NCBI RefSeq assembly: GCF_013315695.1
Contig: NZ_CP054353.1
Length of the DNA stretch: 64,000 nucleotides
DNA from: Escherichia coli
GTDB lineage: Bacteria > Pseudomonadota > Gammaproteobacteria > Enterobacterales > Enterobacteriaceae
Strand: one strand, 5' to 3'
The first letter of the stretch is position 1, and each line of letters begins with the position of its first letter. Positions 3,201-10,410 of the stretch are shown here, piece by piece. A program made the position numbers.

Positions 3201-6200
3201 GTTCAGACAGGATACGTATTCCCTTATCCAGACCGGACACCACTGAAATCGTCGCTAACCCCGTGATGACCACGATCAGAATTACCTGCACCGTTTCATT
3301 GATGGGCACCCCGAAAAGATGGTTCAAACCGGCATTCACCTGCAAAACACCGTAACCCAGTGATGTCGCAACGCCAAAGACCGTGCCTATAACAGCGAAA
3401 ATATCAACCGCATGTCCTACAGGTCCGTATATGCGATCGCCAATAATGGGATAGAGTGCGGAGCGCAGAGTTAAAGGCAGACCGTGACGGTAACTGAAGA
3501 ACGCCAGAATCAGCGCCACAATGGCATAAATTGCCCATGCGTGCAGTCCCCAGTGGAAAAAGGTCAGACGCATTGCTTCCTTAGCTGCCGCAACGGTTTC
3601 TGGAGTGCCAACGGGTGGCGAAAGATAATGCATTACAGGTTCGGCAACGCCAAAGAACATCAGGCCGATCCCCATCCCTGCCGAAAAAAGCATCGCAAAC
3701 CAGGAGTGGTAGCTGAAATCAGGCTGCGCATGGTCCGGGCCCAGCTTGATATCACCGTAGCGTGAGAGTCCAAGGAACGTGACACTCAGTAAAATCAGGG
3801 CCACAGCAAGGATGTAGAACCAGCTGGCATTCGTGAAGATTTGTTGCTGAAGTAGTTTAAAATTTTTGTCGGCGACATCCGGGAATACGGCGGCAAAGGC
3901 GACAAGAAGGAAAATTAGCAAAGCAGATGTAAAGAATACCGCTTTGTTAATCTGACTTGTAGACTTCTTTGGGATTGTATCATTTTCACTCATAATCATT
4001 TATTCCATTAATTAAATTCGCACTGGATAGAAGGTACTACCTCTCACAAAGTAGCAAAGTTCAACTGGCTATGCGGCGTTAATCGTAATGCATGGTGGAA
4101 TGTTGAGGTGTACTGGCAATAGCGGACACTACCATTTGTTCTTTTTTTAAGCGGCCATCTGATGATATTTTTCCCTGAAGGCTGCCGGGGAGATATTCCC
4201 CAGACGAGAGTGACGACGCTGACGATTGTAGAAAATCTCAATGTATTCCCGTATTACTGAGATGGCTTCATCCCGGTTATTAAAACGATAGTGGCTCAGG
4301 CTCTCATTTTTCAGCGTTCCCCAGAAGCTTTCCATCGGAGCGTTGTCGTAACAGTTACCTTTACGCGACATTGATGTTTTCAGACCAAACTGCTCCTGTA
4401 TGACCCGGTAATCGTATGCGCAGTACTGTGAACCTCGATCAGAGTGGTGGATTAGCCCGGCAGGTGGGCGCTGGCTCCTGAGCGCCATAAACAGGGCTTT
4501 ACCTGTCAGCTCTTTTGTCATGCGCTCTCCCATGGCGTAGCCGACAATTTCGCACGTATAAACATCTTTGATGCCAGCGAGGTACAACCATCCCTCCTGT
4601 GTGGCAACATACGTCAGGTCCGCCACCCAGACCTGATTTGGTGCTGTAGGAGCGAACGTCTGGTTCAGCAGATTTGGCGCAACTGGCAGATTGTGGTTCG
4701 AGTTCGTAGTCGCTCTGAACTTGCGTTTCTGCTTACAGCGTAGCCTTAGCTCCTTACGAAGACGTGCCAGTCGGTCACGACCAACGATGATGCCATTCTC
4801 TGCCAGCTCCGTCTGGAGCCGCCGGGTTCCATATGTTTCGCGAGTGCGGATATGTGCCACCTTAATCTCCAGTTTTAGCCGCTCATCACTTTGTTTTCTG
4901 TCTGAGGGTTCATGCTGTACCCAGTTGTAATAACCGCTCCTGGATACACCAAATACCTGACACATCGCTTCAATGGGAAATTGTTGTCGCCATTGTTCGA
5001 TTAACGCGTATTTTTCAGCGACTCCTGTGCAATTTAATATATCTCGCTCAAGGCGAGCTTCATTTAACGCCTTACGCAGTTGCAGAATTTCAGATTCCAG
5101 TTCAGCCACCGTGCGGGAACCAGGAGTACCGAGCCCTTTTCTGGCGGCGGTAACCCATTGTCCTAAAGTGCCTTCAGGAAGAGATAATCGGGAAGCGCCT
5201 TCACTGATCGAAAGTTGATTTTCAAGAACCGTTCTGACAGCTTCGGCTTTGAACTCTTTAGAGTAACGTTGGGTTTTTCTGCTCATTATTAGCTCCTTCT
5301 GATGCCATTCTATTTCAGGAAGGAGTGTCCGTTAAACTCAGGCTACCTCATTGGTTCCCACTACTTATTTGGTGGACACCACTTTGTCTAATTCGTCAGA
5401 TTCTGACCAGACGGTTCAGGCTGTACGCTTACAAACAACTAGTGGAAATACTTGTACTTTATAATTTCAAGGGTACGGGTCCGCTTCGTTTGATTTGCGT
5501 GTTTTTAACAATTTTAAAACCCAGACATACTGTTCCGGATGTGGCCCCACCAAAATTTCCACTGTTTTGTTCATTTGTCGGGCAATCATTTTATTGTCCG
5601 CGCTGGCAATGCAAGCATCCATTGGTGGCCGAATTTCAATAGTCAGGAGATGTTTTTTTTCATCATAAACCGGGAAAAGTGGTATAATCATAGCCTGACT
5701 GATGTTCATCAGACGTCCAATGATTGGTAATGTCGCTTTATAGGTCGCAAAAAAATCAGCAAATTCACTGTATTCAGGACCATGATCCTGATCTGGGAGG
5801 TAATATCCCCAGTATCCCTGGCGTACTGACTGAATAAATGGTTTTATCCCATCCTCCCGGGCATGTAAGCGCCCCCCGAATTTACGCCGTACTGAATTCC
5901 AGACATAATCAATCACTGGATTTCGTTGCTGATGAAACATGGCGGCCATTTTTTTTCCCTGAGCTGCCAGCAACATTGCAGGAATATCCACGCTCCAGCC
6001 ATGGGGAACCAGAAAAATCACATTTCTATTATTGTGTCGAATTTCCTCAAGAATTTCGAGGCCTTTCCAGAACACTCGTTTCTGGAACTTTTCCGGACCA
6101 CGAATTGCCAGTTCTGCCATCATCACTATGGATTGCAATGCTGTGGCAAACATTTTGTCGACAATTATTTCCCGTTCTGTATCACTCTTTTCTGGGAAAC

Positions 6201-9200: not shown

Positions 9201-10410
9201 TCATCTGATGACAGTGTTTTCCAGTTGTTTTCAGCCAACCATTTCATTTGTTTCCGGAATGTCTCGGGAGAAAGTGTAACCAGTCCTGGGCAATGGCTGA
9301 CATGATGATACATTAATACCGGAACATGATTTGCTTTAAACAAAATGCCCCCTCCGTTTAAAATTTAAAGTTTCTGGCACCCAGTAAGTAGAGATAAAAG
9401 GAAAGCCTAATAAAGTTGGTGAACTTTATATACTACTAAATCAAACATCAACAATTTATAAACAATAATATATTATCATATCTTTTAAAAACGGCTCACT
9501 AAGAACCTTGAGGTGGCACACTAAATTTAGCTACCTGAACAGAGGTGATATGCTCACCTCAGAACAACACAGGTGCCATAATGAAAAAAGAAATTTCAGC
9601 GCAGAGTTTAAACGCGAATCCGCTCAACTGGTCGTTGACCAGAAATACACCGTGGCAGATGCAGCCAGCGCTATGGATGTCGGCCTTTCCACAATGACGC
9701 GATGGGTGAAACAATTACGTGATGAGCGGCAGGGAAAAACACCAAAAGCCTCCCCCATTACCCCGGAACAAATTGAAATCCGTGAGCTCAGGAAAAAGCT
9801 ACAACGTATTGAAATGGAAAATGAAATATTAAAAAGGCTACCGCGCTCTTGATGTCAGACTCCCTGAACAGTTTTCGATAATCGGGAAACTCAGGGCGCG
9901 TTATCCTGTGGCCACTCTCTGCCATGTGTTCGGGGTCCATCGCAGCAGCTACAAATACTGGAAAAACCGTCCTGAAAAACCAGACGGCAGACGGGCTGTA
10001 TTACGCAGCCAGGTACTTGAACTGCATGGCATCAGCCACGGCTCTGCCGGAGCAAGAAGCATCGCCACAATGGCAACCCGGAGAGGCTACCAGATGGGGC
10101 GCTGGCTTGCTGGCAGACTCATGAAAGAGCTGGGGCTGGTCAGTTGCCAGCAGCCGACTCACCGGTATAAGCGTGGCGGTCATGAGCACGTTGCTATCCC
10201 GAATCATCTTGAGCGACAGTTCGCCGTAACGGAACCAAATCAGGTGTGGTGCGGTGATGTGACCTATATCTGGACGGGTAAGCGCTGGGCGTACCTCGCC
10301 GTTGTTCTCGACCTGTTCGCAAGAAAACCAGTGGGCTGGGCTATGTCGTTCTCGCCGGACAGCAGGCTTACCATGAAAGCACTGGAAATGGCATGGGAAA
10401 CCCGTGGTAA

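Follow-up and report, generated by a model that had tools for sequence, protein, structure and literature searches.

A four-gene cluster of the type known from the virulence plasmids of Shigella and of enterotoxigenic and enteroaggregative Escherichia coli (ETEC and EAEC) lies at positions 5467 to 9343 of a 64,000-nucleotide stretch of an E. coli genome (NCBI RefSeq assembly GCF_013315695.1, contig NZ_CP054353.1), here called the window. The cluster, shf-capU-virK-msbB2, is located beside the ferric-citrate uptake (fec) operon and between insertion sequences (ISs). Is it a working copy of the plasmid operon or a passenger, and how is it related to the plasmid copies? We consider it likely, with a probability of roughly 85%, that the cluster is a functional chromosomal copy of the PhoP-activated envelope-remodelling operon known from the Shigella plasmid pINV and from ETEC and EAEC plasmids, as judged from sequence comparison and from published work on its homologues.

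Gene content and chromosomal location of the cluster

The four open reading frames (ORFs) are uninterrupted and co-directional on the minus strand, in the order shf (8522 to 9343, 273 amino acids), capU, also called rfbU and of the wabB type (7431 to 8519, 362 amino acids), virK (6476 to 7426, 316 amino acids), and msbB2 or lpxM2 (5467 to 6411, 314 amino acids). The spacers are 2 bp (shf-capU), 4 bp (capU-virK), and 64 bp (virK-msbB2) long. Their products are predicted to be a NodB/CE4-type polysaccharide de-N-acetylase, a GT4 glycosyltransferase, a DUF535 protein, and a paralogue of the lauroyl-Kdo2-lipid IVA myristoyltransferase, respectively. A sequence-only reading of the window had named a deacetylase, a family-1 glycosyltransferase, a VirK-family protein, and an LpxM-like acyltransferase in this arrangement, and the ORFs and the Pfam and NCBIfam matches agree with it in all but the label "family-1", since Pfam "group 1" corresponds to CAZy GT4. 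The GC content of the cluster is 36% to 47%, compared with 53% to 63% in the adjoining fec operon, which fits a foreign origin.

Translation of shf is assigned to a TTG codon at 9343 with the Shine-Dalgarno sequence GGAGG upstream of it, whereas RefSeq places the start at 9364. Shf matches Pfam Polysacc_deac_1 (PF01522; 2e-28) and contains TFDD (motif 1) and the histidine-rich HVHTHTH (motif 2, HxHTH) of the NodB/CE4 family; a simple pattern search of the protein for motifs 3 to 5 gave no match. No N-terminal signal peptide was evident when the sequence was inspected by eye. The N terminus of Shf resembles PgaB/IcaB, which are its best NCBIfam similarities, far under the cutoffs of those models. 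CapU has the two halves of a GT4 enzyme, PF13439 (Glyco_transf_4) at residues 12 to 161 and PF00534 (Glycos_transf_1) at residues 186 to 333, with an additional match to PF13692, and an EX7E motif (ESFGMVLAE) at residue 272. VirK matches DUF535 of the VirK/YbjX family over its full length (1.9e-89; model positions 2 to 278 of 281). MsbB2 scores above the cutoffs of the lipid_A_msbB equivalog TIGR02208 (443.5 bits versus 336.05) and of NF006507 (522.6 bits versus 337) and matches PF03279 (Lip_A_acyltrans; 6e-96). Its HX4D motif, HGWSVD at residues 137 to 142, aligns with HGWAVD of the housekeeping LpxM.

To the right of the cluster, the window has an ISEc52-like IS, yjhV, fecEDCBARI (11644 to 19189, minus strand, with equivalog matches for FecE and FecA), ykiE, and IS1F, in the same order as in K-12; the fec operon is physically linked to the shf operon and lies outside it. 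From 9960 on, the window is 99.4% identical to and collinear with K-12, from "IS911B-1" through IS1F. In K-12, ~14 kb separates fec from leuX, and both belong to the same variable region (leuX...IS911-yjhV-fec-IS1F). The window ends with nanM, nanC, a truncated fimB, fimE, and fimA (57457 to 63463) and is chromosomal, because it runs on into nanM-nanC-fimBEA. Moreover, it matches several complete chromosomes collinearly from end to end at 99.8% to 99.9% identity. The cluster had been placed in the chromosome next to fec from the outset, and the contig is indeed not plasmid derived. A scan of the window and of three flanking loci fetched found no tRNA gene; partial tyrosine integrases are present upstream in related chromosomes.

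Relationship to plasmid operons and to the housekeeping lpxM

The gene order in the window is that of the operon on pWR100 of Shigella flexneri 5a M90T, and the proteins are 96.0% (Shf), 95.9% (CapU), 93.7% (VirK), and 96.5% (MsbB2) identical to those encoded there. They are therefore not distant relatives of the plasmid proteins, as the proposed kinship implied. At the DNA level, the module is 96.3% identical to pWR100 over 3,997 bp, and the copies on E. coli ETEC and EAEC plasmids are 98.8% to 99.8% identical to it. The ratios of nonsynonymous to synonymous substitution rates (dN/dS) relative to pWR100 are 0.15 for shf, 0.21 for capU, 0.28 for virK, and 0.18 for msbB2, indicating that all four genes are under purifying selection. 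The Shigella pINV operon (pWR100/pCP301) thus shares with the window the gene order, 93.7% to 96.5% protein identity, and the half-sites of a PhoP box, and pWR100 has a 102-bp IS911-family remnant at the same junction. The window copy differs from that of pWR100 in being chromosomal, in having a leader shorter by 49 bp, and in lacking the plasmid sequence that lies outside 5433 to 9610.

The ecf operon of pO157 (ecf1 to ecf4, including wabB and lpxM2) likewise starts with a deacetylase and a GT4 gene and ends with a second LpxM gene. However, its DNA is only ~67% to 70% identical to that of the window, its LpxM protein is 61% identical to MsbB2, and its third gene encodes a CptA-like phosphoethanolamine transferase, whereas the window has virK in that slot. 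This arrangement was seen in the pO157-type plasmid NZ_CP062724.1 (4839 to 9648), where the deacetylase gene, frameshifted in the record, is followed by the GT4, CptA-like phosphoethanolamine transferase, and lpxM genes.

MsbB2 and the housekeeping LpxM (MsbB1) belong to the same equivalog family, share the HX4D motif, and are predicted to catalyze the same reaction, but they are only 68% identical in protein and ~70% in DNA, are encoded at different loci, and differ in regulation (PhoP activation has been shown for the Shigella msbB2 operon). In a distant-mode search of the 5,426 complete E. coli genomes used as the distribution sample throughout, a gene annotated as lpxM with ~70% DNA identity to msbB2 was found in 5,425. 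The EcPF7 chromosome, whose cluster is identical to that of the window, has two places that match msbB2. As the housekeeping lpxM is also present, including in chromosomes with an identical cluster, msbB2 represents a second late acyltransferase gene, as had been predicted.

Putative PhoP-dependent promoter of shf

The leader and promoter region of shf was delimited by alignment with pWR100 to 9344 to 9508 (minus strand). The pattern TGTTTA-N5-TGTTKA has a single match in the window, on the shf strand at 9448 to 9464, where 0.06 matches are expected by chance. The half-sites of this box, TGTTTAtaaatTGTTGA, equal those of the Shigella shf box, tTGTTTAtgaatTGTTgAt, to which PhoP binds as shown by electrophoretic mobility shift assay and DNase footprinting (PMC5775216). 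In Shigella, primer extension has placed the -10 element of shf at TAAATT and the transcription start ~100 bp upstream of the gene (PMC12562796). Directly behind the third base of this -10 element, pWR100 has 49 bp that are missing from the window and the E. coli plasmid copies. A candidate -10 hexamer, TAGTAT, is found at 9430 to 9435, 12 nucleotides downstream of the PhoP box, which is the spacing of the Shigella -10 element. TAGTAT may thus serve as the -10 element of the window shf promoter, and PhoP control would be retained with the shorter leader.

A 143-bp fragment of the shf promoter (9366 to 9508) that contains the PhoP box is also found, at 95% identity, on unrelated plasmids of Salmonella, E. 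coli, and Moellerella. On the one such plasmid examined, the Salmonella IncF plasmid NZ_CP149201.1 (3001 to 3143), the fragment has an IS3-family element on one side and, on the other, a fimbrial subunit gene, which occupies the position of shf. Judging from this arrangement, the shf promoter piece appears to have been reused upstream of another gene.

Insertion sequences bounding the cluster

The left boundary is formed by IS600 of the IS3 family (4104 to 5350, minus strand; NCBIfam transpos_IS3, 400 bits), which is 98% identical to the IS600 of pWR100 and 99.7% identical to an IS600 fragment of K-12. Its transposase is encoded by a single fused OrfAB-like ORF of 379 amino acids (4147 to 5286, minus strand), in contrast to the usual two frames with a programmed frameshift, and the element is 1,247 bp long compared with 1,264 columns in the alignment with the pWR100 IS600. 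A 3-bp target duplication was not found on reading the ends of IS600 (CAA versus ACA). Next to it is an 82-bp terminal fragment of an ISEc8-like IS66-family element (5351 to 5432), which begins with GTAAGCG, abuts the module shared with plasmids, and is separated from the msbB2 stop codon by 34 bp. This fragment matches the ISEc8 flank of a pO157-type plasmid at 98.8% identity and is 100% identical to window positions 25683 to 25764, the end of a complete IS66-family element.

The right boundary is an IS3-family element similar to ISEc52 and IS911 (9509 to ~10750, plus strand), which starts with TGAGGTGGCACAC. Over most of its length it is 98% to 99% identical to ISEc52, compared with ~92% to IS911. 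Relative to ISEc52 it is a mosaic, with 91% identity over 9509 to 9606, 99% from 9607 on, and 90% to 94% at 10106 to 10305. The first 102 bp (9509 to 9610) correspond to the remnant common to pWR100 and the ETEC plasmids, close the plasmid-shared module on the right, and are identical to the remnant on pE275a. A comparison with K-12 had suggested that the element is a chimera of 90% and 99% IS911 identity; this was rejected because, in a comparison with a full ISEc52 copy, the element proved to be ISEc52 for the most part. The chimera claim is now restricted to the joint at 9607 to 9610, where the sequence hints at it weakly. The transposase gene is frameshifted by a 1-nucleotide deletion in an A-run directly after the orfA ATG (RefSeq, "IS3 family transposase, frameshifted"), and the element is probably immobile. 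The sequence-only reading had placed an IS3-family element and an IS66 end on one side of the cluster and IS911 on the other. Both left-hand elements were identified, and the right-hand element is IS911-like as well, but its name needs correction, since ISEc52 is closer; the homologous piece in K-12 is annotated as IS911B.

Proposed function of the operon

Under low Mg2+, acid pH, or cationic peptides, which act through PhoQ, phospho-PhoP would bind at 9448 to 9464 and drive one transcript through the four genes; in Shigella, the operon is PhoP activated (PMC5775216). CapU, as a GT4 enzyme and WabB homologue, would add an N-acetylglucosamine (GlcNAc) side branch to heptose III (HepIII) in the inner core of the lipopolysaccharide (LPS). 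The HepIII acceptor is not known to be R3-specific. WabB, the pO157 homologue of CapU, puts GlcNAc on core HepIII (bioRxiv 10.1101/536201), and the WabB-type core modification has been given as alpha-1,7-glucosamine (GlcN) (PMC2808357). Shf would convert the core GlcNAc to GlcN; it is taken as cytoplasmic because no signal peptide was seen, and this substrate is proposed for the same reason and because its gene adjoins that for the GT4 enzyme. In Klebsiella pneumoniae, the GlcNAc transferase WabH and the deacetylase WabN place GlcN in the LPS core. The logic proposed for CapU and Shf is the same, with a cytoplasmic deacetylase, but the acceptor sugar differs and the likeness is one of analogy. 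By this analogy, the Shf-CapU pair probably constitutes a GlcNAc-to-GlcN route. VirK would support the outer membrane barrier, as the protein is known to be cytoplasmic and GNAT-like and to be needed for the barrier and for novobiocin and polymyxin resistance (PMC12562796). Finally, MsbB2 would add the sixth, myristoyl, chain to Kdo2-lauroyl-lipid IVA and so back up or boost LpxM in producing hexa-acyl lipid A. The Shigella protein myristoylates penta-acyl lipid A redundantly with LpxM (PMC2808357, PMC12562796).

The resemblance of Shf to PgaB/IcaB raises the alternative that Shf and CapU act on an exopolysaccharide similar to poly-N-acetylglucosamine instead of the LPS core and that the cluster is mainly a biofilm determinant. 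An insertion in the shf gene of pAA2 did lower biofilm formation by EAEC 042 (cited in PMC2808357), and PgaB and IcaB are the best NCBIfam similarities of Shf, though far under the cutoffs. However, PgaB and IcaB act outside the cytoplasm, whereas no signal peptide was seen in Shf, and the cluster has no PgaC-like synthase or exporter. In addition, WabB, the homologue of the GT4 partner, has been assigned to the LPS core, and virK and msbB2 are tied to outer membrane integrity and lipid A. An exopolysaccharide function is therefore considered unlikely.

Origin and possible mobility of the module

The segment shared with the plasmids pWR100, pETEC_80, pE275a_100, and pETEC_74 spans exactly 5433 to 9610, so that its right limit falls 102 bp inside the IS. 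The sequence common to these plasmids continues past both limits, for ~280 bp at one end and 137 bp or more at the other, and the chromosome lacks both flanks. We propose with moderate confidence, from these boundaries, that a plasmid-type module was trimmed at both ends and recombined through the IS911-family end with the ISEc52-like IS beside fecE. The right join would have formed between the 102-bp IS911-family end and an ISEc52-like IS already present by fecE in the leuX-fim variable region, and the left end of the module would have been cut later by IS66 and IS600 events.

The opposite direction, in which the fec-linked chromosomal form is ancestral and the virulence plasmid copies were derived by truncation of the adjacent IS, would account for the full-length IS at the chromosomal junction, of which the plasmids keep only 102 bp. 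It is nevertheless improbable, as the divergent pINV and ETEC IncF plasmids share flanks past 5433 and 9610 that are missing from the chromosome, and the plasmid-type first 100 bp of the IS (91% identical to ISEc52), followed by sequence 98% to 99% identical to ISEc52, fit a hybrid joint that arose on the chromosome.

Two circular "plasmid" records without a replicon, pEC11-5 (21,115 bp; NZ_CP060942.1) and AR_0162 tig00002623 (23,332 bp; NZ_CP021680.1), consist of DUF2254-betT-IS600-shf operon-ISEc52-fecEDCBARI-IS1 remnant (window ~407 to 20484), closed by one IS3 copy. Such circles could have arisen by excision of a translocatable unit, by tandem amplification, or through an error of assembly. 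Because two independently deposited circles consist of exactly this block, it is conceivable, though rather doubtful, that the ~20-kb DUF2254-betT-IS600-[shf operon]-ISEc52-fecEDCBARI-IS1 block is an IS3-bounded translocatable unit that exits as a replicon-less circle. If so, the LPS-remodelling operon and iron uptake would move jointly between chromosomes and plasmids, which would explain why linkage to fec is seen in ~85% of the E. coli genomes that contain the complete shf cluster.

Arguments for and against a functional chromosomal copy

Several observations weigh against the picture of a plasmid-derived, PhoP-controlled operon that acts on the LPS core. (i) Compared with Shigella, the leader lacks 49 bp and the candidate -10 element is TAGTAT and not TAAATT, so promoter strength may differ. 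(ii) A generic sigma-70 scan of the window found no shf promoter, and its sites were no more frequent than in shuffled sequence; a miss is expected because the promoter would be PhoP-dependent, but the scan provides no positive support either, and the terminator scan run alongside it was uninformative. (iii) WabB was characterized on pO157, where the GT4 gene is only ~67% identical in DNA to the window capU and where a CptA-like gene stands in place of virK; with so distant an enzyme in a different operon, we can only infer the acceptor sugar of the window CapU. (iv) The pairing of Shf with CapU is an analogy. (v) Positions 10106 to 10305 of the right IS are also mosaic (90% to 94% identity to ISEc52), so that the case for a recombination junction is less strong.

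Could the chromosomal copy then be a redundant passenger between IS elements, silent or decaying? IS debris is present on both flanks, the housekeeping lpxM is always present, and the leader carries the 49-bp deletion relative to Shigella; furthermore, msbB2 is split by ISKpn26 in some genomes, and the annotated lpxM has been lost from several ETEC plasmids. Against this, none of the four ORFs is disrupted, the catalytic motifs named above are present, dN/dS is 0.15 to 0.28, the PhoP box and a -10-like hexamer have been kept, and the cluster is complete in 429 genomes with at least 99% identity among the matches listed. We thus regard a silent or decaying passenger as very unlikely and prefer the functional operon. 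That the window is plasmid DNA or a misassembly, as the two small circular "plasmid" records (21 and 23 kb) made of this segment might suggest, is hardly credible given the continuity into nanM-nanC-fimBEA, the collinear complete chromosomes at 99.8% to 99.9% identity, the shf-IS-fecE linkage in 365 genomes, and the lack of a replicon in the circles.

Distribution and earlier description

The 429 genomes mentioned above, out of 5,426, contain 80% or more of the sequence used as the cluster query (window 5300 to 9500). The shf-IS-fecE linkage was found in 365 of the 5,426 genomes (~7%), and 339 genomes have 80% or more of the window's first 25 kb.

The chromosomal fec-linked arrangement is already known, as it was described in EAEC 042 in 2010. 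In that strain, the chromosomal shf locus (Ec042-4769 to 4772) lies beside fec (Ec042-4776 to 4782) (Chaudhuri et al. 2010, PMC2808357) and consists of shf, rfbU, virK, and msbB2 with a promoter regulated by PhoP/Q (Mg); a second copy, without msbB2, is carried on the plasmid (Ec042-pAA021-023) (PMC2808357). Positions 1 to 25000 of the window match the EAEC 042 chromosome over 100% of their length at 99.7% identity, and the two are the same element. The order in 042, DUF2254-BCCT transporter-IS3 family-lpxM-virK-capU-deacetylase-IS3 family-fecEDCBARI, is that of the window, and only strain-level differences were seen, with the sequence upstream of the TetR/DUF2254 genes varying among carriers. 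Since both the locus and its chromosomal copy are in the literature, no new biological question is opened here. Only the precise limits of the module, the hybrid joint in the IS, and the 21- to 23-kb circles that lack a replicon are mildly new.

Other genes in the window

Left of IS600, the window encodes a BetT-like choline transporter of the BCCT family (751 bits) and a DUF2254 protein, together with a TetR-family remnant (656 to 3999 and 190 to 468, minus strand). All three accompany the shf-fec block in every carrier examined. In AF3, the closest chromosome, the same island has a complete grp glycyl-radical propanediol-utilization microcompartment cluster just upstream of the point at which the window begins; EcPF7 lacks this cluster there.

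Three large genes at 45705 to 55104 (plus strand) make up a defence-type locus. They encode an SNF2 helicase, for which DISARM DrmD is the best match (662 bits), as well as a methyltransferase (1,551 bits) and a restriction enzyme (2,306 bits), both of type III; farther downstream is part of a gene for a phosphorothioate-dependent restriction endonuclease. Near the end of the window, fimB (60752 to 61237, plus strand) is cut to 161 of 200 residues, and RefSeq reports an internal stop in the near-identical AF3 chromosome, where fimA is likewise flagged with an internal stop. Judging from these truncations, the lineage may have an impaired type 1 fimbrial switch.

Implications

Maintenance of hexa-acylated lipid A by a second, PhoP-controlled myristoyltransferase would affect sensing by TLR4/MD-2 and caspases as well as resistance to cationic peptides. 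A second acyltransferase also bears on the detoxification of strains by deletion of lpxM alone and on low-endotoxin engineering. In addition, the presence of a chromosomal copy in ~7% of genomes is useful for annotation and for the reading of "capU/shf/virK" matches as plasmid markers.

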